Positions 5,861 to 59,722 of a stretch of 64,000 nucleotides of DNA are shown here, in pieces. The stretch spans positions 24,524-88,523 of the forward strand of contig JAFSZY010000041.1 in NCBI GenBank assembly GCA_017458845.1, given 5' to 3'. The notes under the pieces were generated by a model. It saw nothing but the letters and a program-made list of their open reading frames with translations, was not told the origin of the DNA and searched no databases. A program made the translations under genes and the position numbers. Each line of letters opens with the position of its first letter. The first letter of the stretch is position 1. The DNA is from Ruminococcus sp. (GTDB lineage: Bacteria > Bacillota > Clostridia > Oscillospirales > Acutalibacteraceae).

Positions 5861-7051
5861 TTATTCAACTTTAATCTTCACCGTTACGGTTTTGGATTTT
5901 GACTTGTACGCTGTGTTGCCCTTGGCGCTTACCTTTACCTTGAGCTTATAGGTCTTGCCCTTTTTGAGGCCTTTTTTGACGGTGATTTTACCTGTCTTTT
6001 TGTTGACGGTAATCTTCTTGCTGCCTTTAACCTTCTTGAACGCCAATTTTCCCTTTGCGTTTTTGATTGAATAGGCTTTGGCTTTTTTGAACACAGTCTT
6101 TTTAGACTCGGCTTTAACCTTTAAAGTTTTGCCCTTAACGGTCACGGGGTTAGACCTTTTGACAACAGTAAATTTCATCTCTGTGTACTTGCCGTTGTTG
6201 GTTACTCTGACGTATGCTGTGCCTGATTTAACACCTTTGACCTTACCGTTTTTGTCCACTGTGGCAACCTTGGAGTTGCTTGATGTAAATGTGGTTTCGC
6301 CAACAGGATTTTTAACCTCAGGCGTAACTTTTGTGCTTTCGCCGACAAAGAGTTTGGTCTTGCCCGCTTTGGCGGATACTTCTGTCTGGGCTTCCTCGCC
6401 TACCTCGATTGTCTTGGGATAATTGCTTTCTTCCTCAACTGTGAATGTCGCCTTATTGGAGAACACGCTCGGGCCGTCAGGGAATAATTCCTTTACAACA
6501 TCATCAGGGAAACTGTTCGTATTCACTACTGTCTCGTTCTGGATAGTAATTTGGTCGCCGACCTTGAGTCCATTGACCTCGGTCAAACCTGTCGCCTGGC
6601 TCTGCTCAACAGTCTGTGTCTCATCGTTTTCCAAAAGCGGTACGTTGTACTTTATAAGTCCCTGACCACCGCCTGTATCGTAGGGGGTCCAGCTCCAGTT
6701 CCACATATTGCTGTCGAGCTGAACATCGGGCTTAACCGGGCCAATCAAAGTCATACCGAGGCTTCTGATACTCTCGGATGTTCTGCCGTCCTTGAGTAAC
6801 GCGCTAAGATGACCTTCGAGGAAATGTACCGCTTCGCTGTCACTGAGATTCTCGGCAGCGAAGATTTCTACGGTAACAGGAAGATATTTCTTACCTGTAT
6901 TTGCATCCGTAAGCGGCTTTCCTATTGTGATTTTTTTAATCTGAGCCTTGAAATTATCAGGGCTGAATGCCGAAGCCTGAATCGCGCACAGCGAAATCAT
7001 ACTGAGGCATAGACAAAGAATCAAGCCAATTGAAATAACTCTTTTTTTCAT
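5861..7051 (-). CDS. Secreted protein: unknown N-terminal domain, Big_2 Ig-like domain, Lys-rich C-terminal module
   Basis: Signal peptide MKKRVISIGLILCLCLSMISLCAIQASA; FTSSNSKVATVDKNGKVKGVKSG (Big_2); C-terminus ..KVKVSAKGNTAYKSKSKTVTVKIKVE. Confidence 0.85.
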   Translation of the reverse strand: MKKRVISIGLILCLCLSMISLCAIQASAFSPDNFKAQIKKITIGKPLTDANTGKKYLPVTVEIFAAENLSDSEAVHFLEGHLSALLKDGRTSESIRSLGMTLIGPVKPDVQLDSNMWNWSWTPYDTGGGQGLIKYNVPLLENDETQTVEQSQATGLTEVNGLKVGDQITIQNETVVNTNSFPDDVVKELFPDGPSVFSNKATFTVEEESNYPKTIEVGEEAQTEVSAKAGKTKLFVGESTKVTPEVKNPVGETTFTSSNSKVATVDKNGKVKGVKSGTAYVRVTNNGKYTEMKFTVVKRSNPVTVKGKTLKVKAESKKTVFKKAKAYSIKNAKGKLAFKKVKGSKKITVNKKTGKITVKKGLKKGKTYKLKVKVSAKGNTAYKSKSKTVTVKIKVE

Positions 7052-7080
7052 AATTCTTCCTCCTGTTTTAAAAAATTACT

Positions 7081-7947
7081 TTAAAAATATATTCCCGGGC
7101 AAAGTACGAACACGTCAAATAACAGCAGAGCCGCTGCACCAATCCACAAAATTATTTTCTTGTCCGCACAGGGCGAGAAATAGTAAATGCTCTTTTTCAT
7201 AGGCTTAACCATAATCGCCGTGAACATATATCCCCAGAAAAATGTAATCATACCGAATACGTTAGTTATAGCTCCGAAGATTAAGGAATTCACCGCGCCT
7301 ATCTCGGCGGCAAGCGGAGAAACCAGCCCCAGAAGCGTGTAAACTACCGAAAACAATATGAACGGAAAGAGGTACAGCGCCGAAGCGACCGTATTCCTCT
7401 CCTTCTTGTCGTTGTTATTTTTTATGAAGTGATACGCCTGCCTGTAAGCTATATAAAACGTCAAAAGAATGCCCGCGCTGCCTACAACCAGCATACCAAT
7501 TCGCAGAGCTATACTGCCGTCAAAACGGTCCAGCACCTTGCACCAGTCACCCATACCGTTATTCGGCGAGTAGGCTATACCGTCGCGCAGAAAATAACCG
7601 AAGCCCATACTTAGGTGCATAATCGTAAGCATAAGCATAAACGCTCTGCTCAGCGGACCAAACCTGATTTTGCTGAGAATCAGCAGCAGTATGAAACCTA
7701 CCGCGACATTCATCAAAGCCGCGCTGCCCTCGTACATCAGCTTCCAGAAAAAGGAATTCATATCAACGCTTACGGTACCCGCTGTGCTGTTAATGCCAAA
7801 GCCCAAAAACTCGGGCTTCATTCCCGCAGCCACCTGAGTGAGCATATGCGTCGCCTCGTGTACGGGGCTCGTAAGGTTGGCGGCGATAATCATTAATGCG
7901 AGACAGTTTATTATCATAAACGCTCTGCTTTTTGTTTTATTATTCAT
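7081..7947 (-). CDS. Polytopic membrane protein, probable M50-type (site-2-protease-like) zinc metallopeptidase
   Basis: HEATH (HExxH) inside a hydrophobic segment, later NNGMGDW; about 7 hydrophobic stretches. Confidence 0.6.
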   Translation of the reverse strand: MNNKTKSRAFMIINCLALMIIAANLTSPVHEATHMLTQVAAGMKPEFLGFGINSTAGTVSVDMNSFFWKLMYEGSAALMNVAVGFILLLILSKIRFGPLSRAFMLMLTIMHLSMGFGYFLRDGIAYSPNNGMGDWCKVLDRFDGSIALRIGMLVVGSAGILLTFYIAYRQAYHFIKNNNDKKERNTVASALYLFPFILFSVVYTLLGLVSPLAAEIGAVNSLIFGAITNVFGMITFFWGYMFTAIMVKPMKKSIYYFSPCADKKIILWIGAAALLLFDVFVLCPGIYF

Positions 7948-7973: not shown

Positions 7974-8426
7974 TTACTTTCTCTTATAAATTGTATCACT
8001 GCCTGTGGAATCTTTGACGTTCAAGGTGTCGCCGCTCAGTTCGTATTCGAGCTCCATCGGCGCCGTATTGCCGTCGTATAAGATGCTCAGCGTTGAACCG
8101 TCGGCCTCGTAAGTGAAGTTCATCTTTTGACCCGCAACATCATATACACCTGTTTTATCGTCGTTGAATGTGTAGGTGAAGCCGCCGCTCTCATACTCCC
8201 AGGAACCTACCAGCTTATTATCGGCTGAAGCTTCGGCTTTAGATGAGTCTGATTTACTGCTTGCAGTAGATTCCGCTTTTGTTTCGCTTGATTCAGCCTT
8301 TTCGGACACAGTTTCGGAAACGGAAGCGGTTTCCTTTTTCTCGGTTGTTTCACCGCATGACGTCAGCGACAGCACCAATACGGACGCGCAAATCAGCGCG
8401 ATTATAATACATATTGATTTTTTCAT
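7974..8426 (-). CDS. Lipoprotein with a DUF5640-like beta domain
   Basis: Lipobox LTSC after a hydrophobic stretch; S/E/K-rich linker; LVGSWEYESGGFTYTFNDDKTG. Confidence 0.75.
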   Translation of the reverse strand: MKKSICIIIALICASVLVLSLTSCGETTEKKETASVSETVSEKAESSETKAESTASSKSDSSKAEASADNKLVGSWEYESGGFTYTFNDDKTGVYDVAGQKMNFTYEADGSTLSILYDGNTAPMELEYELSGDTLNVKDSTGSDTIYKRK

Positions 8427-10144: not shown

Positions 10145-13100
10145 TTACTTCACTTTTATCTTTACCGTCACGGTCTTAGTGCCCGGCTTATAGGTTGTAT
10201 TGCCCTTGGCGGTAACTTTAACTTTGATAGAATAAGTACCTTTATTCGTGCCTTTCTTTACTGTAATTTTGCCTGTCTTGGCGTTCACTGTAAAGAATTT
10301 CTTGCCCGAAGTTTTCTTGTAGCTTATAGTTCCCTGAGCTTTGCTGACTGTTATCGCCTTAACAGTTACAGCCTTTTTCTTGACTGTATTGTACTTAACG
10401 GTCTTAGCTGAGGCTTTAACTTTCATCGGGTTGGTTTTCTTGACAATATTAATCTTCACGGTCGCGGACTTGCCGTTGTTGGTTGCCGTGATGATAACCG
10501 AGCCAGCCTTTAAGCCTTTTACAACGCCGGACGAGGAAACTGTCGCAACCTTTGTGTTGCTGGACTTGAACGTAGTACTGCCTACACCGTAATCAACGGT
10601 CGCCTTGACAGTTGTGGTGCTTCCAACATAAATTGTGGACTTGGTCGCCTTAAGCTTGATTGTGGTCTCGGGAGCCTGCGTTTCGGTGGGCTCTGTCGTC
10701 TGTGTTTCGGATGTCGGGTTCGTACTCTGAGTTTCCGCACTTGCCTGAGTAGGCTCGGTGGGCTGAGTTCCCTGTGTTCCGGACGTATTTGTTTCAGTGG
10801 GTTCGGTAGTCTGTGTATTCTGAGTAGGCTGTGTGGGTTGTGTGCCTGTAGCCTGTGTCTCGGTGGACTGTGTAGGCTGAGTATACGTCTCGGGTTCTGT
10901 AGGTTCGGTAACAGCGGGAGCCTCTTCTCCGATAGTTATACTCGTTCCACCCGCAGCGTATTTGCCGTTTTCATCAAGCACCATTACTCCGAGGCTGTAT
11001 GTCATCTTATCTGTCGGAGTAAATGTGTATGTATTTGAAGAAGATTCCTGAACCATCTGATGGTTTACGGTGAATCTGTATGTGAGGTTATTGCTCTTGA
11101 AGTTGTAGGGTTCAGCCTTGAGAGTTATGGGTGTTCCCACGCCCTGTGTACCCGCCTTGTCAGCGCCGAAATTCACTTCACAGGGAGCTTCGTTTATAAC
11201 CGAGTCGCTCAGAAGCGCGCCCACTCTTGCGAGAGGAACGGTAATTTCATCGATATCCTCTTTCTCGTGTGAGGTTGAGGGGTCGTAGCTGTATTCAACA
11301 TTGGCGTTGTCCTGCATTGAAGCGTCGTAGGGCAGGCAGTCCATTCCCGATGTGCCGTATGTGAGAATCTGCATAGCGCCGATGCCGTTTGTTTCGATAT
11401 AGTTCTTGTCGATTCCGAGAGTGCTCAGAGGAACGGCTACCTCATAGATAAATCCGTGGTTGTTCTGATAGCCGAGGTCAAAGAAGTCAACCCAGTTTGA
11501 GTTGGGACTTAAGCTGTCGCCGAGTGAGTGCGAGCCCTTTGCTCCGCCTACGCCGAACAATGTGTCTGAAAGCGTACCGTAATTGTGGGCAATCTTGAAT
11601 CCGTTCTGGTTGTCCTGCTTTTCAAACGAGGTTACGCCTATCGGGATTCTTGTGTCGTAGTTGAACATATAGTTGTCGGTGGCTTCGTCATAGTGGTCAG
11701 CCTTGAAGATTGACGCGCCGCCGTTAGAGTTGTTGGTGTCAAAGGCTATTAAGGTGTCAACGTTTGTCTTGAAGCCTACGCCGCCATCCTTGGCAACTCC
11801 GCCGTCACATCCCCACGCATAGGGGTTTGTATAGGGATTGCCGCTCTTGTCAGTACCCCAAGCCGTGCCGTCAGCGTGGATTGAAGGGTCAACGCTCAAC
11901 GCAAGATACATAGGGATTGAGTTCCTCCACGGACGCGCCTCCTGGGAAGCCGCGAAATTGTCGCTCGGGGAGACGATATATGTGGTATTTGCCATTTCCC
12001 ACATAAAGTAGAGGTTTGTGTCGTCCCATGCGGCGTAGAGGGCATAATCGTCCCATGGCTGTTCGTGCATTGAGGATGGCATATATACGCGCGGGTCGTC
12101 GTTGGCAACGCCCTGAGCGATAATCATCGAGCTGTCCCAGTCAGAAGGGTTGCCGTCAACCGTGATTGTCTTGCTCTTGCCCAGCTGCATATTGGGATTA
12201 GTGCCGTAATAGCCGCCGACAGCGTCGCTTGTGTGCCCGTCCGAGGGTGAATAGTAAGTGGTCTTGGTCGGTGTAAATGTCTTTTTATAGGTAAAGTCTG
12301 TCGAGGTCTTAACGCCCTTATCATTCTCTGCCGTAAGGGTAAGCTTTACGGTTGAGTTGCCGATTTTGCCCTGACCGACCGAAACGGTTGTGGTTCCCGT
12401 GTACTCAAAAACAGAGCCGTCGTCTATTTGATATGTGCCCTTCACTGCGTTTTTAAGTCCGATTTTAACATTCATTGTGTCGGTTGAGAAGGCTGTTCCG
12501 CTCGCTGTGTAAGCGAAACCCGCGGGCTTGGAGTCGGGAGTTCCGTAGTCTACCCACTCGTTGTCCGCAGTGAGAAGCTTGCATTCGCCCGCTTTGAGCG
12601 GGAGTCCGCTGTTTTCGGGGTACTGCTCTTTGCCCTCGTCCTTTTCCTTGCCGTTGTTGAAGATTACGTTCTCGTTTTTGAACGCGGATGAGAACGCGTA
12701 ATAGTAAAGTCCGCTTTCGTCCGCCTGCATCTTCTCGCCCGGCCATTTGGCGTTTTCCTTGGTGCCGTAGGCGTAGATATACACGTCGTCCCAGTTGTAT
12801 TTTGAATTGTCAAAATACGCAAGCGATGAAGCCGATGGAGTAGAAACCTTGGTGTAGGTGTAGCTCTCGCTGACAGATTCATTATCAGCAGAAGCTGACA
12901 AGTCGAGCTTGATAACGTCGCCCGTCTGAGCGTCCGCGCCGAGAGTGAGTTTGGTTCCATCGGTATACTGAACGGAAGTCCCGCCGTTGATTTTGTAGGT
13001 TCCGTAAGCCGCTTCAGCCACGCTGAGGGTGACCTCAATGCTGCCTACAAAGTCACAGTTCTTGGGTGACGCGCTGACCGCCAGACCGATTGAGGGCTGT

Positions 13101-13516
13101 TCAAAATCAACCCATTCGGCGTCGTTGCAGTAGTTGCCCCAATCATTGTTGTGTCCTGTGGAGAGCACACGGCACATCTTGCCGCTTGAAGGCAAACTAA
13201 CGTTGACGGTCTGGTGTTTTGTGGAAACATCACCATCGTTGAACAGAAACTCATTGAAGCTCGCCTTAGCAGTGTACTTGTAGATGTTCCCGCCGATATT
13301 CTCCATCTTATAGTCATAAAGTCCCGAGGGTTTAGGTGAACCCTCCCAGTAATAAATACAGATATTGTCGCTCCAGCTGTCGGGTTTCTCGAAGTAGATA
13401 ACATCGCCAGAGCTGACAGCGTTCGCGGATACCGCCACTGCAGAAAACAGCGACAGTATGAGGATAGCCGAAAGCATTAAACTAATCGACTTTTTGAACG
13501 ATTTTGTTAATTTCAT
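10145..13516 (-). CDS. Non-catalytic starch-binding surface protein: CBM26-like x2, Fn3/CHB_HEX_C-like x2, CBM74-like, PKD-like, T/Q/E-rich linker, Big_2, Lys-rich C-terminal module
   Basis: IYFEKPDSWSDNICIYYW and YFDNSKYNWDDVYIYAYG..WPGEKM (CBM26-type); ITVDGNPSDWDSSMIIAQGVANDDPR..YALYAAWDDTNLY..DPSTSHEKEDIDEITVPLARVG (CBM74-type); no GH13 motifs seen. TTGACT-17-TATAAT promoter at 13550-13578. Confidence 0.75.
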   Translation of the reverse strand: MKLTKSFKKSISLMLSAILILSLFSAVAVSANAVSSGDVIYFEKPDSWSDNICIYYWEGSPKPSGLYDYKMENIGGNIYKYTAKASFNEFLFNDGDVSTKHQTVNVSLPSSGKMCRVLSTGHNNDWGNYCNDAEWVDFEQPSIGLAVSASPKNCDFVGSIEVTLSVAEAAYGTYKINGGTSVQYTDGTKLTLGADAQTGDVIKLDLSASADNESVSESYTYTKVSTPSASSLAYFDNSKYNWDDVYIYAYGTKENAKWPGEKMQADESGLYYYAFSSAFKNENVIFNNGKEKDEGKEQYPENSGLPLKAGECKLLTADNEWVDYGTPDSKPAGFAYTASGTAFSTDTMNVKIGLKNAVKGTYQIDDGSVFEYTGTTTVSVGQGKIGNSTVKLTLTAENDKGVKTSTDFTYKKTFTPTKTTYYSPSDGHTSDAVGGYYGTNPNMQLGKSKTITVDGNPSDWDSSMIIAQGVANDDPRVYMPSSMHEQPWDDYALYAAWDDTNLYFMWEMANTTYIVSPSDNFAASQEARPWRNSIPMYLALSVDPSIHADGTAWGTDKSGNPYTNPYAWGCDGGVAKDGGVGFKTNVDTLIAFDTNNSNGGASIFKADHYDEATDNYMFNYDTRIPIGVTSFEKQDNQNGFKIAHNYGTLSDTLFGVGGAKGSHSLGDSLSPNSNWVDFFDLGYQNNHGFIYEVAVPLSTLGIDKNYIETNGIGAMQILTYGTSGMDCLPYDASMQDNANVEYSYDPSTSHEKEDIDEITVPLARVGALLSDSVINEAPCEVNFGADKAGTQGVGTPITLKAEPYNFKSNNLTYRFTVNHQMVQESSSNTYTFTPTDKMTYSLGVMVLDENGKYAAGGTSITIGEEAPAVTEPTEPETYTQPTQSTETQATGTQPTQPTQNTQTTEPTETNTSGTQGTQPTEPTQASAETQSTNPTSETQTTEPTETQAPETTIKLKATKSTIYVGSTTTVKATVDYGVGSTTFKSSNTKVATVSSSGVVKGLKAGSVIITATNNGKSATVKINIVKKTNPMKVKASAKTVKYNTVKKKAVTVKAITVSKAQGTISYKKTSGKKFFTVNAKTGKITVKKGTNKGTYSIKVKVTAKGNTTYKPGTKTVTVKIKVK

Positions 13517-23496: not shown

Positions 23497-26400
23497 TTAT
23501 TTAACTTTTACCTTAACGGTCACCGTCTTAGATTTTGCCTTATAAGCTGTGTTGCCCTTAGCGGTAACTTTGATTTTAATCTTATATGTTTTGCCTTTCT
23601 TTAGTCCTTTCTTGACTGTCAGCTTACCCGTCTTTTTATTGATACTTATTTTGGAATTGCCTGAAACCTTCTTGTAGGTAACGGTACCCTTTGCATTTTT
23701 AACCTTGAGGACTTTGGACTTTGAGAAGGTTGTTTTCTTCGCAGCCTTTGCTGTGACGGTCTTGCCCTTTACGGTAAGCGTGTTGACGCGCTTGACAACC
23801 TTAATCTTGACGGACGCGGACTTACCGTTGTTGGTCGCCGTGATTATTACGGAGCCCGCCTTCTTGCCGACAACCTTGCCTGAGGATGTAACTGTGGCAA
23901 CCTTTGTGTTGCTTGACTTGAATGTTGTGCTGCCGACGCCGTTTGTCACCGAAGCGTAAACCTTAGTGGAAGCGTTTACATAGATTGTAGACTTTGTTGC
24001 CGCTGCGGCAATAGATGTCTGGTACTGCTGCTCGGTAGCCTGTGTTTCACCGGTTGATTGGGTATCTGTTTCAGGCTCGGTAGTCTGATTATCCGTAGTT
24101 GCCTGAGTGGCTTCGGTTGCCTCTGTATTCTCACCGGATTCAGTTGCCTGAGTTGCATCCGTCGTCTGAGTAGACTCAGTTGACTCAGTTGTTTCAGTGT
24201 TTCCTGTGGTTGCTTCAGTTGCCTCAGTTGCCTCAGTTGTCTGAGTTGCCTGAGTAGCTTCGGTGGTCTCGGTTGTTTCGGTTTTCTTTGTGATTACCGT
24301 TACGGAAACCTCGCCTTTAATCTTAGTCAGGCGATAAGTGTTTGCGAGAGTCGAGCTGAGATCCTTCAGATTCTTATAGTTAGTGTCCGGTGTCGCTGTA
24401 ACGCTTTCCACCTCATAACCGTCAGCGGGAACTACGGTAAAATTGACCTGACCGTCGCCCGAGCTGTCGGGTTCGCCCGTATCGCTGTTTCTCGAAACCG
24501 CCGAAATTACGTTTGTCGCGGAAGCCACGGAATAATCCTGTGTATTATATGTGTTAATTGTCGCGTTGCCGTCTGTGATGAAGCTTACAGTGTAGCCCTC
24601 GTCGGCAGTTGTCGCGGAAGTCGCTTCTGTGCTATCAGTTGTCTGAGCGGCTTCTGTTGTGGCTTCTGTCGCGCTTGTTGTCGCTTCTTCCTCAACATAC
24701 TCTGTAACCGTAGTGAGCGCGGGTATGGTCTTGTACTCAACCCGGCTTGAATCGGAGCAAGTGTACTTGAGCAAGCCTGTGCTTGATGTTGTCGCGGCGC
24801 TCACAACAGTACCGCTGTTCCAGCTGTGGGCCCAAGGGTTGCCCTTGGAGGTTGTAACGCTTGAAGCTGTGGAATATGAGGTGTTGGATGAGGTTGTGTT
24901 AGCGTCAGAGTAGAGAATATAGTTTACGTTTCTGAGGAGCTTTTCACTGCGAACCACACTGCCGCTTTGAGTTACGTTAATAACTGTGCCGGCTGAACGG
25001 CTTGTTGTTGAAACGTAATATTTCTGAGTGCCGGTCTGGGAGCTTGGGTTCTCGTTCATCGAATTTGTTCCCGCGGCGAAAACCGTGCCGCCTGTGATTG
25101 TAATCGTGCCGTCGCAGTCAAGGGGCGAGTTGTCGCCGCCTGTGGCTTGCGAAAGGACTGTCACATCGCCGCCTGAGATTTTGAGGTCGCCGTTTGAGTC
25201 GAGACCGTCGCCTGTACAGTTCACATAAACGTTGCCGCCATAGATGTTGATTGAGTAGTCGGATGAGCCCGAGCTCTGCTGGCCGCCCTGCTGACCGGGC
25301 TGATTTCCGCCCTGACCGGGACCGCCCTGGTTTCCGCCCTGACTGCCCTGACCGGGTCTGAACTGGTCGTTGCCGCCCTGTCCAGGGTCGGTGCCGTTGG
25401 AGCTGCCGCCTGCGGCGTTGATGCCATCGTCGGAAGCGTTGACATAAAACTTACCTGAGTAAATATTGACTACGGCTCCTTCTAAGCCCTCGTAGCTTGA
25501 ATTGACTGTAATCTCGGGGTCGCGGTCATAGCCGTTCTCTGTGCCGAGTGTGAGAGTAGCGTCGGCGTGGACGCCGTCGTCGCCTGTGTAGATATCAAAC
25601 GTACCGCCTGTGATTGTAATATAGCCGTTGGAGTGAACCGCGTCGTCGGCTGTGTTGAGGCTAAAGGTACCGCCCGAAATTGTCATAGTGTTTGTGGGGT
25701 TGTTCTCGTCAGTGACATTGTTGCTCGAAACCTTCAAGCCCTTACAGCTCATTGTATCCTTGTTAAAGGTTAAACTGCCGTATCCGTTTTCTGTTTTTAC
25801 GGTATAATCACCGTTTGTAATGGTGAGGTTCTCAGCCGCGACAATACCGTCGCCCTGAGCGTTGATATTAAAAGTACCGCCGTTGATTGTAACAGTACCC
25901 GCGGAGTCTGTGTCCCCCTCGTCGGGCTGGGACTTGATTCCGTCGTTTCCGGCTGTCACGTTGAATGTGCCCGCGTTGATTACGACGCTGCCGTCAAAGG
26001 CTATGCCATTGTTGGCGGCTGTGGCGTTTATAATTCCGCCGTCAACGATTAACGAAGATGTTGTGCCGCCCTTGATTGCGTTCTTGGGTGTGCCGACAGC
26101 GTTGAGCGTGCCGTCGCCGAAAATCGTGAGCGTTGAGCCTGCCTTGACCTTAATCGCCGCTCCCTCAAAGTCCGAGTTGGTCTCGTCGAGAGTTTCGTTA
26201 TCGGTGATTGTGCTTGTGCCCTCGAGCTTTAGAAGCACCGAACTCGACTTTTTCACAACTATCGGAGCTGTGCTTGCCGAGGTTAAATCGAGGTCATCGA
26301 GTATCAGCGTAACTCCGCTGAGACTGCCCTTAACGACAATCGCGCCCTCGGAGCAGCTGCCTGTCACACGATAGGTGCCCGCCTCGTTGATTGTGAGCGT

Positions 26401-26565
26401 TGCGCCGCTTATGGTATAGCCAGAGCCCGAAACGGTCTCGGTTATACCGCTGTCCGTGAATGTAAGCGTTGCCTGCTCAGCCGAGTACGCCGATGCCGTA
26501 AAAGGTATCATCGACAAAATCATAAGAGCCGCGAGTATTACGCTCAGAAGTCTGGTAGTTTTCAT
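23497..26565 (-). CDS. Cthe_2159 (DUF4353)-family beta-helix carbohydrate-binding surface protein with T/E-rich linkers, Big_2 and Lys-rich C-terminal module
   Basis: GSCSEGAIVV, repeated GDGI/DDAVHSNG/DDGVHAD/DDGINAAGG/GDGLDSNG/NSPLDCDG Ca-binding turns, G/Q-rich insert; start ATG 26565 with GGAGG RBS. Confidence 0.88.
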   Translation of the reverse strand: MKTTRLLSVILAALMILSMIPFTASAYSAEQATLTFTDSGITETVSGSGYTISGATLTINEAGTYRVTGSCSEGAIVVKGSLSGVTLILDDLDLTSASTAPIVVKKSSSVLLKLEGTSTITDNETLDETNSDFEGAAIKVKAGSTLTIFGDGTLNAVGTPKNAIKGGTTSSLIVDGGIINATAANNGIAFDGSVVINAGTFNVTAGNDGIKSQPDEGDTDSAGTVTINGGTFNINAQGDGIVAAENLTITNGDYTVKTENGYGSLTFNKDTMSCKGLKVSSNNVTDENNPTNTMTISGGTFSLNTADDAVHSNGYITITGGTFDIYTGDDGVHADATLTLGTENGYDRDPEITVNSSYEGLEGAVVNIYSGKFYVNASDDGINAAGGSSNGTDPGQGGNDQFRPGQGSQGGNQGGPGQGGNQPGQQGGQQSSGSSDYSINIYGGNVYVNCTGDGLDSNGDLKISGGDVTVLSQATGGDNSPLDCDGTITITGGTVFAAGTNSMNENPSSQTGTQKYYVSTTSRSAGTVINVTQSGSVVRSEKLLRNVNYILYSDANTTSSNTSYSTASSVTTSKGNPWAHSWNSGTVVSAATTSSTGLLKYTCSDSSRVEYKTIPALTTVTEYVEEEATTSATEATTEAAQTTDSTEATSATTADEGYTVSFITDGNATINTYNTQDYSVASATNVISAVSRNSDTGEPDSSGDGQVNFTVVPADGYEVESVTATPDTNYKNLKDLSSTLANTYRLTKIKGEVSVTVITKKTETTETTEATQATQTTEATEATEATTGNTETTESTESTQTTDATQATESGENTEATEATQATTDNQTTEPETDTQSTGETQATEQQYQTSIAAAATKSTIYVNASTKVYASVTNGVGSTTFKSSNTKVATVTSSGKVVGKKAGSVIITATNNGKSASVKIKVVKRVNTLTVKGKTVTAKAAKKTTFSKSKVLKVKNAKGTVTYKKVSGNSKISINKKTGKLTVKKGLKKGKTYKIKIKVTAKGNTAYKAKSKTVTVKVKVK

Positions 26566-26740
26566 AGTGTTGTCCTCCAATCATTATGTTCAGGGAATTG
26601 CCTTTCCCTTAGTTTACATATTAAGCTTAAATAGTATATGTGATATGTTTTTGAACACAATCTGTTTTATTTTGAAAAGTTTTGCGAAATAATCATCTCT
26701 GTGTATAAATAATACAAAAGAAATCTTGAAGTTTTATTGC

Positions 26741-27099: not shown

Positions 27100-28374
27100 C
27101 TATGCGAACAGAGTTGCTTTTCTCCACGCGCCGTAGTATGTTTTGCCGCCTATTTTCTTATAAGCTCTGATGCGAATGTAATAATAATAACCTGAAACCG
27201 TCTTAATCTTAGCGCTACTGGCATAACTTGCCAATTTTGCGGATGAAGTATACTTTGAGGCAAAATTCTTTTTAGTGGAAACCTGTAAATTATAACCCGT
27301 ACAGTTAGCTTGCTTCTTGAACGAGATATTCAGGTATCCTTTTTTTACGGTTTTCTTAGTTATAGCAACCTGACCCGGCTTGACCAGTATGGTTACTTTC
27401 TTGGTTTTCGCCTTATACTTAGTGGTTTCCTTAGCTTTGATTGTTATTACTGCCTTACCGCAACCCTTAACAGTAACCTTGCCCGATGAAGAAACCGCAG
27501 CGACCTTCTTGTCGCTTGATTTGTATGTCATTTTGGTTTTTGCCTTAGCTCCGAGAGAGAACGGGGACGCGCCGTATTTTTTTGTAAAAGAGCTTTTACC
27601 CTTAATAGTCTGGTTACTCTGAACTGTTACGGTTACCTTAACACTGCCAATAATCGTTTCATCTCCCGTAATATTCTCATAAAGCTTAAAGTTAAGAGTT
27701 GTCTTTCCTCTTTTAACTCCCGTAAGGGTAAACACCGCGGTATCTTCTGCCCATTTTTTAAAATCAATTTTCACTAAACTGTTATTATTCCATGATACGC
27801 CAAAATACTTAGGATAGGTTCCGTCGGGATAAATCTTCAAGGTAGCAGTGTTTGTACCAGATAAATTTAATTTAAAATTCTTTTTGCTGGCAACAGTCTT
27901 AGTATTGCAAACCAAAACCCCTACTGTTGTGCTTGCAATGGTTGTTTCGTTCGGATCGTCAGAGTCGTAAATACTGAATTCAATTTCAACCGCATCAACA
28001 GCTTTGCCTGTTAAAGACAATACAGCGCTGTCACCTTCCCATCTCACAAAAGTGACATTTAGCGCGCTTTTATTGTTGTTTGACCAAGCAATAGTATAGT
28101 TATTGGGATAATAACCCCCGGGCGTAACTTTAATCTGAGCTGTTCTGGTACCGTTAAGATTCAGCACAACAATGCTCTTATCCACTGTAAGCTTGCTGTC
28201 TGCGCCGGTTGGTTCCTTCGCAATTGAGGAACTACTCTTTTTTGCAACCTCGACTTTACCGCTTTCTCCCGCCGATGAGGAAGATTTAAATGCCTCTTGC
28301 GCGGACACGCTGAAAGTTGAGAGCGTTATCAACAGCGCCAGTAAAACACTTGTAAGTATTTTTAGCTTTTTCAT
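27100..28374 (-). CDS. Secreted protein with two Ig-like repeats, Big_2 and a basic Fn3-like C-terminal domain
   Basis: Signal peptide; internal repeat (TAQIKVTPGGYYP.. / TATLKIYPDGTYP..); YKSSDKKVAAVSSSGKVTVK; YYYIRIRAYKKIGGKTYYGAW; AT-rich. Confidence 0.82.
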   Translation of the reverse strand: MKKLKILTSVLLALLITLSTFSVSAQEAFKSSSSAGESGKVEVAKKSSSSIAKEPTGADSKLTVDKSIVVLNLNGTRTAQIKVTPGGYYPNNYTIAWSNNNKSALNVTFVRWEGDSAVLSLTGKAVDAVEIEFSIYDSDDPNETTIASTTVGVLVCNTKTVASKKNFKLNLSGTNTATLKIYPDGTYPKYFGVSWNNNSLVKIDFKKWAEDTAVFTLTGVKRGKTTLNFKLYENITGDETIIGSVKVTVTVQSNQTIKGKSSFTKKYGASPFSLGAKAKTKMTYKSSDKKVAAVSSSGKVTVKGCGKAVITIKAKETTKYKAKTKKVTILVKPGQVAITKKTVKKGYLNISFKKQANCTGYNLQVSTKKNFASKYTSSAKLASYASSAKIKTVSGYYYYIRIRAYKKIGGKTYYGAWRKATLFA

Positions 28375-29273: not shown

Positions 29274-29283
29274 AAACACCTCT

Positions 29284-39124: not shown

Positions 39125-39136
39125 AGCGTTCCCTCC

Positions 39137-40903: not shown

Positions 40904-40921
40904 AGTGTGTCATCTCACTTA

Positions 40922-41515: not shown

Positions 41516-41526
41516 ACTTACATCTC

Positions 41527-41835: not shown

Positions 41836-41837
41836 AA

Positions 41838-42260
41838 TTAGCCGTTGAGAATAAGGATTGATATAAGCATTCCGTAAAGCGCGATACCTTCGCCGAGAGC
41901 AACGAAGATGATAGCCTTACCGAAGTTTTTGGGGTCCTCAGCCGCCGCGCCGATAGCCGCGGGAGCGCCGTGTCCAACCGCGATACCGCCACCGATACAG
42001 GCGATACCTGTTGAAAGAGCCGCGCCGAGGTACTGCATACCTTTTGCTGAAGCGTCAGCCATAGGAGCGGGGTCTCCGCTTGCGGCGCCTGCTGCGAGCG
42101 GGAATATAAGACATAACGATAATACCGCTCCGAAAGAAGCGAGCTGAAGAAGCAGGGAACGCTTGGCGTTGCCCTTTTTATTGAAATTATTAGTAGCGAT
42201 AACTACGGATAAAACTAACAGTGCAACAGGCACAATCATAAATATAGCGTTTAATAACAT
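41838..42260 (-). CDS. atpK: V/A-type ATP synthase subunit K (c), single ion-binding hairpin with an N-terminal hydrophobic extension
   Basis: GAALSTGIACIGGGIAVG..AIIFVALGEGIALYG with the conserved Glu. Confidence 0.92.
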   Translation of the reverse strand: MLLNAIFMIVPVALLVLSVVIATNNFNKKGNAKRSLLLQLASFGAVLSLCLIFPLAAGAASGDPAPMADASAKGMQYLGAALSTGIACIGGGIAVGHGAPAAIGAAAEDPKNFGKAIIFVALGEGIALYGMLISILILNG

Positions 42261-42317
42261 TTTGAATTACCTCCAATTATTTATCAATACCCCTTTAAGG
42301 GTGCATATGGATTTTGA

Positions 42318-44261: not shown

Positions 44262-44312
44262 TTCAAATCACCTCCTTATTAATTCCAAACTAAAACTTAA
44301 TATATTATTAAA

Positions 44313-45332
44313 CTAATACACAAGAAGCGCTTCGATAACCTCCTTATCGACTCTGTATCGCGCTCCCTCTGTAATACAAACAAGGTTGTGCAGCTCAATA
44401 TCACACAGCACGATAAATGAAATCATAACCGTTGAGGAGCTGTCAGAGTAGTACATATTATGCTTTGCCTTTTTGTATTTTACTTTTATCTCAAGCTCAT
44501 CGACGTAATCATAGTCGACCTTATCAATGAGCTTACCTGTCTTTGTTTCCGCCATAATGTCATAAACCTCTTTTGGGGTTTCGGCGTTGCACATAGCGTC
44601 GATAACCTCGGGTTTTAAACTTCCGAACGGTATGATATGGCTTCTGATCACCTTATTGTCCGCTTTATAATGCTGCTTGATTCGAATTATGTTCAGGAAG
44701 TTCCTGAAGTCGATAATTGAGTCAAGAAATGCTTTGAGTGAGCTCCTCTCCTCCTCGCTCGTTTTTTCAATCATCTTGTAAAGCTCAACATAAAGCTGAG
44801 TGTACAGGTCGCTTTCGATTTCGGTTATCGGAATCTGCTTATTATCCTTTATGTCGTATTTCTTGAGAATCTTCTCGTAAGGTGTATTTTTAGCGGCTTC
44901 CACAAACTGTTCGAAAGTCTTAGTCTCTGCCAAAGCGTTCAAATCAATCGATGTCCTCTTGGCGATATGGGCGGGAACCGTGAAATTATACTCGCGTTTA
45001 TCCTGAGAATTGAGCACTGTCAGAATTTTGATTATCTCGTCAATTTCGGTCTTGTGAGCCACGTACTTCGAGACATAGTCGCCGACGCTGAGTTCATATC
45101 GGCATATTGTGTCAATCTCATTGATATAATACTGCCTTAAAAGGCTCTCAAAAAGTCCGCGCCTCATTCCGCGCTCGTTAGCCTCGCCAAACGCGTCAAT
45201 ATACCTGGTATTCGATTTTAAATATGCCATTACGTCGGGTACGCTCTCGCAGTTGAGAAGAGCCTTGTAGTCCTTCTCTTTCAGGCGTTTCCCGTATTTG
45301 GCCTTAGCCCGCGTATACGCCGCATAACTCAT
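44313..45332 (-). CDS. atpC: V/A-type ATP synthase subunit C (d)
   Basis: TRAKAKYGKRL; ELHNLVCITEGARY; operon position. Confidence 0.88.
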   Translation of the reverse strand: MSYAAYTRAKAKYGKRLKEKDYKALLNCESVPDVMAYLKSNTRYIDAFGEANERGMRRGLFESLLRQYYINEIDTICRYELSVGDYVSKYVAHKTEIDEIIKILTVLNSQDKREYNFTVPAHIAKRTSIDLNALAETKTFEQFVEAAKNTPYEKILKKYDIKDNKQIPITEIESDLYTQLYVELYKMIEKTSEEERSSLKAFLDSIIDFRNFLNIIRIKQHYKADNKVIRSHIIPFGSLKPEVIDAMCNAETPKEVYDIMAETKTGKLIDKVDYDYVDELEIKVKYKKAKHNMYYSDSSSTVMISFIVLCDIELHNLVCITEGARYRVDKEVIEALLVY

Positions 45333-53600: not shown

Positions 53601-54534
53601 GGAAAAGACCGCCGCAACCCTAAACATAAACGACAAGGACGTGGACGTGGAGATAGTCGATAAGACCGACAAAGTTACCTACGAAAACATCCTCAAAACC
53701 AAAATCACCGCAACCAAGAAGGACGCTGAGGGCAACGACGTCACCAAGACCTACAAGCTCTCAAAGTTCGCTTATGTCACCGACGGCTACACAATGAGCA
53801 ACATCACCCGCGAGAACCAGCGTATGTACCTGCAGGTTGAGTCGGAAATCGGCGAGGGCGAGAACACCACTCTGCTCAGCCGTAAGGTCCAGGAAAAGCT
53901 CGACAATTACAAAGCCCCCGCGGGCTATGATATTGAGATTGCGGGCTCGGCAATACAGACCGAGGAAATGGTCAACCAGATGCTCAGAGCTATATTGCTA
54001 GGATTCATTCTCATCTACCTGATTATGGTGGCGCAGTTCCAGAGCTTCCTCTCGCCTTTCATCATCATCTTCACGGTACCTCTCGCCTTTACGGGCGGTA
54101 TGATAGGACTGAGCCTGTTCGGAATGACAATCTCGGGAATGTCGCTGATGGGCTTTATGATACTGATGGGAACTGTCGTAAACAACGGCATTGTGTTCGT
54201 GGACTTCGCGAACAAGCTGAGAATTCAGGGGCTCGACAAACGCCGCGCGTTAATCGAAACAGGTAAAACAAGGATGAGACCTATCCTTATGACAGCTCTG
54301 ACCACAATCCTCTCGATGAGCGTGATGGTATTCTCTCAGGACGCGGGCAACGCTATGCAGCGAAGTATGGCGGTTGTGGTTAGCGTGGGACTTCTGTACT
54401 CAACGCTTATGACGCTGTTCGTGGTGCCTGTAATGTACGACATATTCTACCGCAAACAGCCTAAGGTAATCGACGTGGGCGACGACCTTGACGATGAAGC
54501 TGACGAAACGGAAGAAATACTAAGTAATATGTAA
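50605..54534 (+). CDS. AcrB/AcrD/AcrF (RND)-family transporter with a large coiled-coil insertion
   Basis: GMLVDNSVVVMENI; GTVVNNGIVFVD; TRMRPILMTALTTIL; about 250-aa helical insert; no membrane-fusion gene adjacent. Confidence 0.92.
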   Translation: MTKFFVKKPYFMIVTIIIVLVVGFVSVTSMKTDLMPKFELPYIAVITTEAGASPDKVEKDVAEVMENALGTLNGVEKVTSTSSNNYAAVILNFADDTDMDSALVRVSKAVNVMELPEECGTPNILEISMDMVATMYANINYKGKDIKELSDFSENVVKPYLERQDGVASVTANGLINDSIEIKLSEKKIDKINARILSKTNDKLAEASGKIEDSKSKLSESKREIESGKSKLGDTQSKTTDKLSKAATQLSKAQATKAAYESTLLSLNASKSALEAELKAYKDAKLEDAYTGLDKALAALNQNLSPIAQMQDITIPASVEEAVKNPEEYEKFLKWMNDAGYGDQVKKLSLDTLKQVYNAVKVRIPQIETELANLNTKIKVQETIVEQLNKKASNLDENQSDINSAELNAAVEFGAGKAQLNSAETQIENAQKELDEAQKKLENSFKAARDNSNIDALLTLDTLSQLISAQNFSMPAGYVEDKDENQWLVEIDENFKSAKQLKNLVLTKVDGIGKIKLSDVANVVTVDNVGEAYCKVNGEDAVMLSVYKANTANTSEVSDGINKAFDELESKYKGLSFTQMMNQGDYITRILNSVLSSILLGAILAIVVLALFLKSVKPTLVVAFSIPFSVLFALIIMYFTGINLNVMSLAGLCISIGMLVDNSVVVMENIFRMRQKGIPAPRAAVQGTKQVAAPIIASTATTICVFLPMVYTTGIVAQLMIPFAFTISYALIASLIVALTVVPTIGSLILKKNKERKQNWYDKLKNLYGKAIAFCLRFKFIPLVVSVVLLALMIIQTFGTGMTTLDSTESNQISVTLTLEEGIKKDKAFKTADKVLERIMKIKGVSKVSGLDGNTGLISTFAGSGFSTNNYSTFTFDVLTDDGVTTTDEYRRIRNEIEKQKKYIDCKELSASSSAMSSMSSLTGGGVSVNIYGDDKEQLIKISEDVIKMMNSVKGIENATNGITESDKTLKLHIDRNKAAEYGLTVAQIFQQVAAKAATEKTAATLNINDKDVDVEIVDKTDKVTYENILKTKITATKKDAEGNDVTKTYKLSKFAYVTDGYTMSNITRENQRMYLQVESEIGEGENTTLLSRKVQEKLDNYKAPAGYDIEIAGSAIQTEEMVNQMLRAILLGFILIYLIMVAQFQSFLSPFIIIFTVPLAFTGGMIGLSLFGMTISGMSLMGFMILMGTVVNNGIVFVDFANKLRIQGLDKRRALIETGKTRMRPILMTALTTILSMSVMVFSQDAGNAMQRSMAVVVSVGLLYSTLMTLFVVPVMYDIFYRKQPKVIDVGDDLDDEADETEEILSNM

Positions 54535-56657: not shown

Positions 56658-57713
56658 TTATTTAACCTTAACCTTTAGCTTTAATACCACGCCGTTGACC
56701 TTGACCTTCAAAGTTGTTGTACCCTTTTTGAGTCCTTTGACAACAAGTGTAGTCGCGGTGTTCTTTGACGTAATCTTTGCAATCTTGGTATTGGTGTACA
56801 CGTTCTTAACAGTAGGAGCCTTGCCCGTGATTTTGACCGTTGCGGTCTTGCATTTCTTGACTGTAACAGCGCTCTTGGAGAGCTTGGGCGAGGATGTTAC
56901 CGTAACTTTACACGTAAGTGTTTTTCCCGAATAGGTTTTCGCCGTGATTGTGGCTGTACCCTTTTTGAGAGCCGTTACAACACCCTTGGAGGTTACTGTC
57001 GCGACGCTCTTGCTTGACGTTGTCCAGCTCTTCGCTGCGCCGTTGGTTATTTTGAGAGTAAATGTTTTGCCCGCGGCGAGACTAAGCGAGCTCTTATTGA
57101 TTGAGGGCGCGCCGAAAGAGAAGATAAAGTTGTACTTCCTGTTCGACTTGGGGAGCACCAACATATAATCACCAATAATGTTGCAGGTCGCAATTCGCCT
57201 AAAGAAAGGTTTTTCCACCGCAAATAAATATTCTACGTCGCTGTTGCCGTCCTTGTCGAGGTCAAAGCCTGTTGAAGTTGACTCAATAAAACCGTTTATA
57301 ATAGCGTGATTGATCGCGCTTGTAACTTCCGGTCTGGCTTCCACGGGAATATACGCTTTGTTCGAGCCTCTAAAATCCACAGTTAGATACTGCTGCGGCT
57401 CAAGAACAAAGTAAATATTTGCGACCGAGTTCGGCATAATAAAATAGCTCTGGTCAACATAATACTGGTCATTGACAGACATACCCGCGATATACGACCC
57501 CTCGGGCACTTCCGCGTCATAAAAAACATAAACCTCTTCGCCTGCGTCCGCGTAGGTGATAGTGTCGCCGTAGTAGTTCTCGGCGTGGCCGTTTTTTACG
57601 TCAATGCGGTAACGTCCCTGAGAGTCCTGGTCGGGTAAAGCCGAAACCGTACAGATTGAAAACACAGACAAAATCATAAGTACAGCGATTAATAAACTAA
57701 CTGTTCTTTTCAT
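56658..57713 (-). CDS. Secreted protein with an InlB-like repeat and basic Big_2-type C-terminal domains
   Basis: Signal peptide; DLDKDGNSDVE; WTTSSKSVATVTSKGVVTALKKG; ends KVNGVVLKLKVKVK. Confidence 0.82.
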   Translation of the reverse strand: MKRTVSLLIAVLMILSVFSICTVSALPDQDSQGRYRIDVKNGHAENYYGDTITYADAGEEVYVFYDAEVPEGSYIAGMSVNDQYYVDQSYFIMPNSVANIYFVLEPQQYLTVDFRGSNKAYIPVEARPEVTSAINHAIINGFIESTSTGFDLDKDGNSDVEYLFAVEKPFFRRIATCNIIGDYMLVLPKSNRKYNFIFSFGAPSINKSSLSLAAGKTFTLKITNGAAKSWTTSSKSVATVTSKGVVTALKKGTATITAKTYSGKTLTCKVTVTSSPKLSKSAVTVKKCKTATVKITGKAPTVKNVYTNTKIAKITSKNTATTLVVKGLKKGTTTLKVKVNGVVLKLKVKVK

Positions 57714-57793
57714 AATAATTCTCCTGATGTTTGAAATTTATAAACACGGGCGCATTGTCCCCTTTCGGGATGCAGTGTGCGTAAATTATATTC

Positions 57794-59722
57794 TTATTTA
57801 ACGACAATCTTAACCTTTACAGTCTTGGAAGCCGCCTTGTAGTTTTTGTTGCCCTTGGCGGTAACCTTAACCTTAACGGTATAGGTACCCTTCTTCAGAC
57901 CTTTCTTTAAGGTGAGCTTGCCTGTCTTTGAGTTGATTTTAATCTTTTTATTACCCGAAGCTTTTTTGTAGGTCACTTTGCCTATAGACTTCTTTACGGT
58001 AATCGCCTTGACAGTAACGTTCTTTTTCTTCACCGCAGCGAGCTTCACAGTCTTTGCCGAAGCTTTAACTTTCATTGGGTTTTTAGCCTTAATGATTAAA
58101 AACTCCGCGTATTCTACTCCCTGATACTTGCCCTGTAAAACTACTTCTACAATGTACAAACCGACATTTACTGCTTTGGGATAGTTTAACATGTAATCTG
58201 CACCATTAACGAGCTTATTGCCCTTGCTGTCCGTTACGGTAACGGATGGCTTTATCTCCTTACCCGTGTAGGTGTATTTAGCCTTCGATGTTGACACTGT
58301 ATACCAATCGGGCTCGGCAGACTCAAAGGTAATGCCGTTTTCGTTGGCATATGTTTCGGCAACCGACCCCTCATAACCGTATATTGTAAATCCGTCATAA
58401 ATCAAATACTGACCATCCTTATAATAATATCCCAGAGCCTTACTGCGGATTTCGGTCACACTTTCGGGTATTGTAATATATTCAAGAGCGCCGCAGCCCA
58501 AAAAGGCGTATCCACCGATTTGATTAACGCCGTCACGCAAAATTACTTCTTCAAGCTTATCACAGCAATAGAACACACTGTCGCCCATCTCTGTAACAGT
58601 GGAGGGGATAGTCACGCTTGTGAGCGATTCGCAGTACTGGAACGCGTCAACGCCTATTATTTCAACTCCCTCGGGAATATGAACGCTCATTAGATTTGAG
58701 CAGTCACCGAAAGCCATCTCGTCAATTTCAATAACAGTGCTCGGAATAACGACGCTTGTAATCTCGTCTTTATCATAAAAAGCATTATAATCAATTTTAT
58801 TGACTTTATATCCGTCAATTTCCGCGGGGATTTCTATGTCACCGCCAAATCCGCTGTAGCCTGTAATCGATGCGGTACCGTTGTTAACAGTATATAAGAA
58901 CTCTGGATACTCGGACAGTGTAAAGCTTTTCATTACAACAAGATTTTTCTTGGCATCGTCTGTTACGTATAATGTATTCACATTAGCGCTCACACCGTTA
59001 ACATAAGCGGTCATAGCACAGCTTTCGTCACTGTCAACTTTAAACTGATAGCCATCGTTTGCGGTAATGGAAACATAAACAGTGTATTCCTTTCCGGCCT
59101 GATATGTGGCGTATTGATTCATCCAGCTATTGTCGTATCTCCATTCAACACTTTTTATAGTGTAGCCTTCGTCAGATGTATTAGCGCTGAAAACAGCTTT
59201 CTCGCCGATCTTCGGCTCAACCACGCCGGTGATGTTCGCTTCTTCTATAACTTTATCAAGCTGATGAGGATTATCACCGCCTGAACCGTCCGCTTTGAAT
59301 TCGTGGAAAATCTGAACATACCCTGCGGGAGAGTAAGAGAAAACCTTATAGACATTAGCGGCTTTTCCGTTTACGGTAGCTGTAATCATCGGGGTGTTTC
59401 CGTTTGCCTTGAAGCTGTAGCCGCTGTTTGGTTTAATAAAGATACTCACATTGTAGTCCTTGCCGGCTTCAAAAATGTCGTCGGCAGTGAGCTCCTTACT
59501 GTCGGTAACGTTGTACCAGCCTACTCCTCCACCGATATAATATTCAGGTTCACACACCGCGTCCATCACGGGGTGCTCGCCGGCCTTTGGAGCTGTTACA
59601 GTGAGCGCAACGGATTCAATTTCGGTTTCCGCGCCCGCCGAGAGCGGCAGAGACGCAAATACCGACAGAACTATAAATAAAGATAATATAATACTTGTAA
59701 AACGAATAGATTTTTCACTCAC
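57794..59722 (-). CDS. Secreted BspA-type LRR_5 protein with two N-terminal Ig-like repeats and the Lys-rich C-terminal module
   Basis: GTG start with GGAGG RBS; IEIPAEIDGYKVNKIDYNAF, VIPSTVIEIDEMAF repeats; ends KVTAKGNKNYKAASKTVKVKIVVK. Confidence 0.87.
   Translation of the reverse strand: MSEKSIRFTSIILSLFIVLSVFASLPLSAGAETEIESVALTVTAPKAGEHPVMDAVCEPEYYIGGGVGWYNVTDSKELTADDIFEAGKDYNVSIFIKPNSGYSFKANGNTPMITATVNGKAANVYKVFSYSPAGYVQIFHEFKADGSGGDNPHQLDKVIEEANITGVVEPKIGEKAVFSANTSDEGYTIKSVEWRYDNSWMNQYATYQAGKEYTVYVSITANDGYQFKVDSDESCAMTAYVNGVSANVNTLYVTDDAKKNLVVMKSFTLSEYPEFLYTVNNGTASITGYSGFGGDIEIPAEIDGYKVNKIDYNAFYDKDEITSVVIPSTVIEIDEMAFGDCSNLMSVHIPEGVEIIGVDAFQYCESLTSVTIPSTVTEMGDSVFYCCDKLEEVILRDGVNQIGGYAFLGCGALEYITIPESVTEIRSKALGYYYKDGQYLIYDGFTIYGYEGSVAETYANENGITFESAEPDWYTVSTSKAKYTYTGKEIKPSVTVTDSKGNKLVNGADYMLNYPKAVNVGLYIVEVVLQGKYQGVEYAEFLIIKAKNPMKVKASAKTVKLAAVKKKNVTVKAITVKKSIGKVTYKKASGNKKIKINSKTGKLTLKKGLKKGTYTVKVKVTAKGNKNYKAASKTVKVKIVVK

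Follow-up and report, generated by a model that had tools for sequence, protein, structure and literature searches.

The 64,000-nucleotide stretch of DNA analysed here (the window: positions 24,524 to 88,523 of contig JAFSZY010000041.1, assembly GCA_017458845.1) comes from a Ruminococcus sp. and encodes four secreted proteins that all end in the same lysine-rich domain of 100-101 residues, referred to below as the tail. According to structure prediction it is a domain of the immunoglobulin (Ig) type; it sits strictly at the C-terminus of its carriers, and on homologous passengers it alternates with known anchoring modules, namely the dockerin, SLH and CWB2 domains. We propose that the tail is a non-covalent surface-retention (anchoring) module, which binds anionic polymers of the cell envelope by multivalent charge contacts, and we give this proposal somewhat better than even credence.

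The tail and its four carriers

The window is a metagenomic scaffold (ENA ERZ28653718, scaffold_704), which shares 94.6% identity over 4.3 kb with the rumen metagenome-assembled genome (MAG) "uncultured Ruminococcus sp. RUG13054". The carrier genes, named below by the first coordinate of their open reading frames (ORFs), and their parts are as follows:

5861..7051, minus strand: carrier 1, a secreted protein of 396 aa with a signal peptide, an N-terminal part without an assigned family, Big_2 and tail
6194..6382 (aa 224-286), minus strand: Big_2 of carrier 1, called by Pfam
5864..6166, minus strand: tail of gene 5861-7051, 101 aa, 35 K, net charge +34, with the stop codon (5861-5863) directly after it
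10145..13516, minus strand: carrier 2, a Sas6 homologue of 1123 aa with a signal peptide, two CBM26, a CBM74-like region (aa 228-855, matching PDB 7uwu), linker, Big_2 and tail
10664..10927, minus strand: linker of carrier 2, 88 aa of Thr/Pro/Glu/Gln
10469..10666, minus strand: Big_2 of carrier 2
10148..10447, minus strand: tail of gene 10145-13516, 100 aa, 28 K, zero acidic residues, net charge +28
23497..26580, minus strand: carrier 3, a secreted protein of 1027 aa with a Cthe_2159 beta-helix (aa 58-336), linker, Big_2-like domain and tail
24016..24282, minus strand: linker of carrier 3, 89 aa, Thr/Glu-rich
23800..24024, minus strand: putative Big_2-like domain of carrier 3, assigned by similarity to 10145, no Pfam call
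23500..23799, minus strand: tail of gene 23497-26580, 100 aa, net charge +33
57794..59791, minus strand: carrier 4, a BspA-type leucine-rich-repeat (LRR_5) surface protein of 665 aa with an MBG-like domain, then tail
58097..58303, minus strand: MBG-like domain of carrier 4, directly N-terminal to the tail
57797..58096, minus strand: tail of gene 57794-59791, 100 aa, net charge +33

All four carrier ORFs possess an N-terminal signal peptide, which in 57794 is a normal one if translation starts, as is likely, at the GTG at 59722. According to Pfam, their passengers are mutually unrelated: CBM26/CBM74-like in 10145, a Cthe_2159 beta-helix in 23497, LRR_5 in 57794 and an unassigned region in 5861. 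In 10145 and 23497 the linkers of 88-89 residues (Thr, Pro, Glu, Gln) lie upstream of Big_2 and the tail. We rejected the possibility of an assembly chimera or artefact, because two independent assemblies (P0267 and P0268, 95% and 90% identical) reveal the same architecture, and a metagenome unitig from another run covers the stop codon, tail, Big_2 and linker with zero differences. Relative to the crystallised Sas6 of R. bromii, the protein encoded by 10145 has about 200 extra N-terminal residues (aa 1-227), including the second CBM26, and this region also matches R. bromii Amy16 (PDB 9qf9, E 7e-12).

The last 100-101 residues of the four proteins align with 52-70% identity and 39 invariant columns, and in each gene the stop codon follows immediately. 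A hidden Markov model (HMM) built from the four tails, compared with the six-frame translation of the window, matches at these four sites only (E 4e-39 to 6e-42). The common module reported in the first-pass annotation, made from the sequence of the window, is therefore real, if slightly longer than the approximately 95 residues attributed to it. The same annotation placed three of the tails after a Big_2 domain, which agrees with Pfam for 5861 and 10145, the only two of the four carriers in which Pfam calls Big_2; for 23497 it agrees with the similarity to 10145, and the tail of 57794 follows the MBG-like domain. The Big_2 domains of 10145 and 23497 had been called near-identical, but they share only 73% identity at the protein level and 74% at the DNA level. 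Moreover, the most similar tails are those of 10145 and 57794 (67%) and those of 23497 and 5861 (69%); since the groupings of the tails cut across those of Big_2, the shuffling of modules postulated earlier is real, though not recent.

Each tail contains 28-35 Lys, 0-1 Arg and 0-2 Asp+Glu residues, with a net charge of +28 to +34 and an isoelectric point (pI) of 10.7-11.0. The remainder of each carrier has a pI of 4.2-5.5, and for the three large proteins its net charge lies between -40 and -56. The tails close with ...KVK or KVE, and that of 5861 has Glu as its last residue. The AlphaFold2 model of the tail of gene 10145, calculated from an alignment of 36 sequences, is a beta sandwich with a predicted local distance difference test (pLDDT) score of 97.4. 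Its best Foldseek matches are the extracellular cadherin (EC) domains of CELSR1, protocadherin and cadherin-23 (TMq 0.62-0.73, E down to 2.5e-4), and Foldseek also places it with RibLong domains and the cadherin-like modules of SraP; the modelled topology is the seven-strand Greek key of EC-type domains. The acidic calcium motifs (DxD, DRE, DxNDN) are absent from the tails, which have 0-2 Asp+Glu per 100 residues, the outward strand positions are occupied by lysine (e.g. KVKVKVTAKG, TVKIKVK), and conservation across the family exceeds 90% at several Lys, Gly and Tyr positions (TGK.TVKKG..KGTY). As modelled, the tail is a self-folding cadherin-like Ig domain from which the calcium sites are absent. 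It resembles cadherin, RibLong and SraP domains in the beta-sandwich topology (TM 0.62-0.73) and in the TG..T....G.Y hairpin motif; however, those domains are internal acidic repeats, whereas the tail is terminal, polycationic and devoid of calcium motifs, and with the Pfam Cadherin model (PF00028) the four proteins score 25.2, 26.5, 22.8 and 20.8 bits, below the gathering threshold of 28.8.

No Pfam or NCBIfam model claims the tail; NCBIfam contains nothing that would match it at E 0.1 in the six window proteins with basic ends (the four carriers as well as 27100 and 56658, described below). The PDB sequence search with the tail gave weak matches only (BT_4661, cadherin-23) and found no solved member, and our literature searches turned up no description of the domain. 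In a comprehensive review from 2018 on how monoderm bacteria display proteins on their surface, the words "cadherin" and "electrostatic" are absent and the sole mention of "Ig-like" refers to pilins. The domain is new to the curated families, solved structures and literature searched. Charge-based and modular non-covalent anchors are already known; what is new is that a terminal Ig domain supercharged with lysine takes the place of the dockerin on Sas6.

Searches for familiar anchors in these proteins were negative, in agreement with the earlier statement that the four carriers have no LPXTG, SLH or dockerin. The four window tails lack a hydrophobic segment, and no LPXTG-like motif occurs in the last 60 residues of 145 representatives. 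Pfam does not report the dockerin (PF00404) F-hand at E 0.1 in the six window proteins, and a dockerin HMM built here from 128 dockerins of the homologues discussed below, on which all dockerin counts are based, matches neither the six frames of the window nor any of 233 tail proteins. For the six proteins Pfam and NCBIfam report no SLH, CWB1, CWB2, LysM, SH3b, GW or WxL domain, and NCBIfam reports no C-terminal sorting model of the type IX secretion system (T9SS; Por_Secre_tail-type) at E 0.1. Nor does the window as a whole contain a dockerin, a cohesin, an SLH domain or a sortase signal.

Alternation with dockerin, SLH and CWB2

The protein encoded by gene 10145 matches R. bromii Sas6 (PDB 7uwu) with 928 bits over residues 228-855. 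Of the 120 best homologues of this protein, 94 have a dockerin at the end and nine the tail, and none has both. Sas6 homologues of the R. bromii type are about 730 aa long and have a dockerin end, whereas the closest homologues of 10145 (60-95% identity, 1040-1230 aa) possess a linker and a Lys-rich terminal Ig domain instead of the dockerin. In some of these close homologues the Lys-rich end is Big_2-like, e.g. KGKATIKIKVNGVKTFKIKVKVV, i.e. of the type found in window gene 56658, and in others it is of a third type, possibly akin to the end of gene 27100.

On the Cthe_2159 passenger we observe the alternation again, independently of Sas6. The homologues of 23497 end in a dockerin (57 proteins), SLH (9), CWB2 (1) or the tail (10), and others have different ends with a net charge of +22 to +35. 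No single protein combines the dockerin with the tail. The dockerin ends have a mean net charge of -9.7, and the SLH and CWB2 ends have -12 to +5 over the last 100 residues. Because SLH and CWB2 are established wall anchors and also fill this C-terminal slot, we regard it as an anchoring slot. Some homologues of 23497 (P0417 and P0439) do not have an Ig domain at the end; there, a short and very basic stretch, e.g. KKQLKTYKKVMKKKGFMGKVKA, comes after an LRR_5 repeat, with +27 to +28 over the last 100 residues. They illustrate a further way to a polycationic C-terminus.

The mutual exclusion applies to single proteins only. When the window and 640 kb of loci were scanned, the dockerin HMM detected one dockerin ORF, a 465-aa ORF with a C-terminal dockerin (E 4e-6) in locus L069 from an Oscillospiraceae MAG (positions 1732-3126, minus strand). 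It lies within 4 kb of a tail gene, and therefore both modules can coexist in one genome.

The two other basic ends encoded in the window, already pointed out in the first-pass annotation, are the following:

56661..56900, minus strand: polycationic Big_2-like terminal domain of gene 56658-57713, +23 over the last 100 residues of the protein
27103..27402, minus strand: third kind of basic terminal domain, in gene 27100-28410, weak Fn3/Ig-like matches, +22 over the last 100 residues

The end of 56658 was modelled as a Big_2-like sandwich (pLDDT 80, TMq 0.8 to the Ig domains of the S-layer protein SbsC) and is thus predicted to represent an Ig family other than that of the cadherin-like tail; the Big_2-type ends finish in Val-Val. 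Among the other Lys-rich ends Pfam firmly assigns one type only (P0395) to Big_2, and the Fn3 assignment for the end of 27100 is weak. What the interchangeable ends have in common is charge and terminal position, not fold. All six window proteins that have an ordinary signal peptide and no other membrane segment (5861, 10145, 23497, 27100, 56658 and 57794) possess a polycationic end (+22 to +34), and the other exported proteins have either a lipobox (7974, 28428, 54652) or a second membrane segment (29284, 31489); each exported protein of the window would therefore be equipped with some retention device.

Distribution of the tail and its probable role

The exhaustive profile search with the tail returned 7133 representative clusters (representatives at 50% identity) at E<=1e-3, of which 4361 reach E<=1e-10. 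The 80 best genome loci, which contain 92 carrier ORFs and to which the loci figures below refer, all come from monoderm (Gram-positive) gut or rumen organisms of Bacillota or Actinomycetota: Ruminococcus, Eubacterium, Butyrivibrio, Blautia, Mogibacterium, Lentihominibacter, other Clostridia, Atopobiaceae, Eggerthellaceae and Coriobacteriales. The swap of the dockerin for a polycationic domain, which had been proposed for the Ruminococcus lineage, is thus supported by the homologues of Sas6 and Cthe_2159 but is not specific to that lineage. The tail is the protein end in 91 of the 92 carrier ORFs (gap of 0-1 residue), in 120 of 120 word-index matches and in 100 of the 113 strongly matching proteins among the best representatives; the mostly internal occurrence against which the earlier proposal had been guarded is not observed. 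The terminal tails of the 80 loci carry on average +31 per 100 aa (range +18 to +42), with 29% K and 1% R, and for the rest of the carriers the median pI is 4.7. Where the domain forms tandem arrays, 67 of 70 proteins have a terminal copy that is more cationic than the upstream ones (+22.9 vs +10.7 per 100 aa; Wilcoxon p 1.5e-12), and the charge is often graded, rising to the C-terminus. The weakest of the high-ranking matches are giant acidic proteins with 8-26 low-scoring cadherin-like repeats, which represent the general fold family and not the Lys-rich subfamily.

According to a Pfam census of 59 full-length carriers encoded outside the window, the passengers are typical surface or adhesin-type proteins, with LRR_5 in 13, LRR_8 in 8 and DUF285 in 6, as well as Big_2, MBG, Flg_new, CAP, beta-helix and peptidase C1 (proteases); there is no known anchor among the 25 families listed of the 38 found. 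When the 461 flanking ORFs of the 80 loci were clustered, the top family, an ABC-F ATPase, occurred in 6 loci only. With no neighbour conserved across the loci, we rejected the idea of dedicated machinery or a partner gene beside the tail genes, and a machinery that would serve the sorting tag suggested earlier finds no support. The tail terminates in Lys in 78 of the 91 ORFs from the loci, in 78 of 100 representatives and in 101 of 120 word-index matches. There is a resemblance here to Braun lipoprotein, whose C-terminal Lys is cross-linked to peptidoglycan, but the residue may simply follow the K-x-K strand pattern.

How the tail would act can be outlined in three steps. The carrier would be exported by the Sec pathway and its signal peptide cleaved; the polycationic C-terminal domain would then bind, by multivalent electrostatic contacts, anionic polymers in the envelope of the Gram-positive cell, for instance teichoic acids, lipoteichoic acids or acidic polysaccharides of the wall; and the acidic passenger would be held outward, in two of the four proteins via the extended, Thr-, Pro- and Glu-rich linker of about 90 residues. 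Both the retention on the surface and the kind of ligand are suggested by the charge, the terminal position and the sharing of the slot with SLH and CWB2. The tail would thereby perform the role that dockerin, SLH or CWB2 plays on orthologous proteins of other lineages. Non-covalent retention by charge is the best-supported reading, and would make the tail functionally equivalent to these modules and to CBM37 of R. albus.

Three observations weigh against retention by wall polymers. First, 13 of the best representatives contain strong non-terminal copies, which are partly due to truncated genes and partly N-proximal tandems. Second, the searches were started with Lys-rich queries, and the conservation of charge across the family is in part a product of how its members were recruited; the within-protein comparison of tandem copies is less exposed to this bias. 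Third, the tail has zero matches in 50,697 phage records and one in IMG/VR. Endolysins often borrow the wall-binding modules of their hosts, and therefore the near-absence from phages is mild evidence against a wall-specific ligand.

Comparison with known systems reveals functional parallels and clear structural differences. The type I dockerin (PF00404), known from the R. bromii amylosome and from cellulosomes, resembles the tail as an interchangeable C-terminal localisation module of unrelated secreted passengers, including the orthologous Sas6 and Cthe_2159 passengers of sister lineages. However, it consists of a duplicated helical F-hand of about 70 aa, is acidic, and binds calcium and a cohesin, whereas the tail is a 100-aa beta sandwich with a net charge of about +30 and 0-2 acidic residues. 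SLH and CWB2 domains hold secreted proteins non-covalently on secondary wall polymers. They share with the tail the slot on the homologues of 23497, but have unrelated folds, usually occur in three tandem copies, form ends that are not polycationic and show no sequence match to the tail. The lysine-rich electrostatic anchors of lactic acid bacteria (the C-terminus of Lactobacillus PrtB and the S-layer SLAP domains) and the Listeria GW modules are basic C-terminal regions that hold proteins by charge on teichoic or lipoteichoic acids; they have different folds or no defined fold, bear no known sequence relationship to the tail, and are known from Lactobacillales and Listeria but not from Clostridia of the rumen or gut. 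With CBM37 of R. albus the comparative reasoning is the same as for the tail, since this module stands in for dockerins on orthologous enzymes and fixes the enzymes to the cell surface (PMC4081043). It is likewise C-terminal, sometimes in tandem, and found on many enzymes whose R. flavefaciens orthologues have dockerins (PMC4081043). CBM37 is reportedly confined to R. albus and binds a broad range of polysaccharides, whereas the tail is widespread in gut Clostridia and Coriobacteriia and is defined by its extreme lysine content; the resemblance is functional and positional only.

It is tantalizing to extend the proposal and to consider lysine-supercharged terminal Ig domains as a general, convergent and hitherto unannotated anchoring system of gut and rumen Gram-positives that replaces cohesin-dockerin, SLH and CWB2, so that relatives of R. 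bromii would display Sas6 and other amylosome components directly on the wall without scaffoldins. Such a system would comprise at least two Ig families (cadherin-like and Big_2-like), possibly a third (the weak Fn3-like one), and thousands of protein clusters. We consider this wider claim quite possible, but rate its chances at slightly less than even.

Among the alternatives, the one that survives best, though we find it rather unlikely, is that the tail binds extracellular DNA or another matrix polyanion and decorates the biofilm or substrate-associated matrix with the passengers. Charge and terminal position fit this explanation equally well, the absence from phage endolysins is neutral for it, and it has a precedent in Streptococcus sanguinis ScpH, where a lysine-rich C-terminus stands in place of the canonical anchor (LPXTG) of the orthologues. 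However, the part of ScpH that binds double-stranded DNA and forms filaments is a short disordered stretch of 14 residues (1493-1506), in contrast to the well-folded domain of 100 residues considered here. Besides, the same slot on Cthe_2159 homologues is occupied by the wall-polymer binders SLH and CWB2, and the presence of such an end on all six ordinary secreted proteins of the window suggests a general retention device.

The replacement of the dockerin on Sas6, a component of the amylosome, raises the question of whether the tail could be a functional analogue of the dockerin in the strict sense, i.e. dock on a specific, probably acidic, scaffoldin-like protein receptor and build an amylosome-like complex without cohesin and dockerin. 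The Lys, Gly and Tyr positions conserved to more than 90% could form a defined interface; however, the conserved residues other than Lys are those of the structural hairpin that is usual in cadherin-like and He_PIG-like domains, the surroundings of the 80 loci contain no conserved gene that could be the partner, and the occupation of the slot by at least two unrelated Ig families, alike in charge only, argues against a specific protein interface. We deem such a receptor improbable. We see equally little prospect for the tail having no anchoring role at all, serving instead as a stalk or an aid to solubility at the protein end, or as an adhesin for anionic glycans of the host or of plants (mucin, pectin), with lysine reflecting composition or general stickiness. 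It is true that its less charged relatives are ordinary internal repeats of giant adhesins, that RibLong and SraP adhesin modules are among the best structural matches, and that the partner domains MBG and LRR_5 are of the adhesin type. Nevertheless, the strict terminal position and the rise of charge to the C-terminus would be unexpected of a spacer, the passengers already have binding modules of their own (CBM26, CBM74), and the alternation with dockerin, SLH and CWB2 would be left unexplained. Finally, a signal for covalent attachment or for dedicated secretion or processing, such as L,D-transpeptidase linkage of the C-terminal Lys as in Braun lipoprotein, or a T9SS-like route, would accord with the terminal Lys (Lys or Arg in 85 of the 91 tails) and with the T9SS C-terminal domains being likewise terminal Ig-like sandwiches on unrelated cargo, but is very improbable given that the tail of 5861 ends in Glu and the Big_2-type ends in Val-Val, that NCBIfam gives no match to T9SS or other sorting-signal models, that the carriers are monoderm with no machinery gene conserved nearby, and that the terminal Lys may simply follow the strand pattern.

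If the tail is indeed an anchor, sequence alone would suffice to place thousands of hypothetical or "Ig-like" proteins of rumen and gut metagenomes on the cell surface. Close relatives of the keystone starch degrader R. bromii would then display Sas6-type starch binders without a cohesin-dockerin amylosome, which would change how starch- and fibre-degrading machinery is deduced from dockerin counts, and a simple, portable, charge-based display tag would become available for anaerobic Gram-positives. The anchoring idea is directly testable, because the tail occurs in the cultured Butyrivibrio sp. LC3010, Blautia luti and Ruminococcus sp. AM22-13.

Other observations in the window and loci

The sole "viral" contig with a tail, the IMG/VR match mentioned above (L082, IMGVR_UViG_3300018494_004380), contains a gene for an LRR_5 protein that also has helical repeats and, at its end, the tail. 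A mutator-type transposase, GAPDH and MnmA adjoin the gene, and the contig looks like a piece of a bacterial chromosome misfiled as viral.

Upstream of carrier gene 5861 there are two genes on the minus strand, for a seven-segment membrane protein without a Pfam family (7081-7947) and for a DUF5640 lipoprotein (7974-8426). The gap between this pair and the tail gene is 29 nt, and all three may share an operon. The basic-tailed secreted protein 27100 belongs to a contiguous cluster (27100-36373, minus strand), together with a Ser/Thr kinase, two PP2C phosphatases, three FHA-domain proteins and a PASTA lipoprotein. One of the FHA proteins contains VWA and another a trypsin-like protease domain, each with a signal peptide and a second membrane segment, and the cluster resembles a transmembrane FHA/kinase signalling module. 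Its Ser/Thr kinase (34496-36373, minus strand) has a C-terminal BspA-type LRR_5 region (aa 542-616), the repeat type present also in 57794, which is an unusual sensor for a bacterial kinase. Further along, a V/A-type ATPase operon (37090-45332, minus strand; A and B subunits, subunit I and the C/AC39 subunit) represents ordinary housekeeping. Finally, 50605-54534 (plus strand) encodes a transporter of the AcrB/RND family (1309 aa, 619 bits) in a Gram-positive genome; it is longer than a typical AcrB, with an N-terminal part of 450 residues outside the best-scoring stretch.

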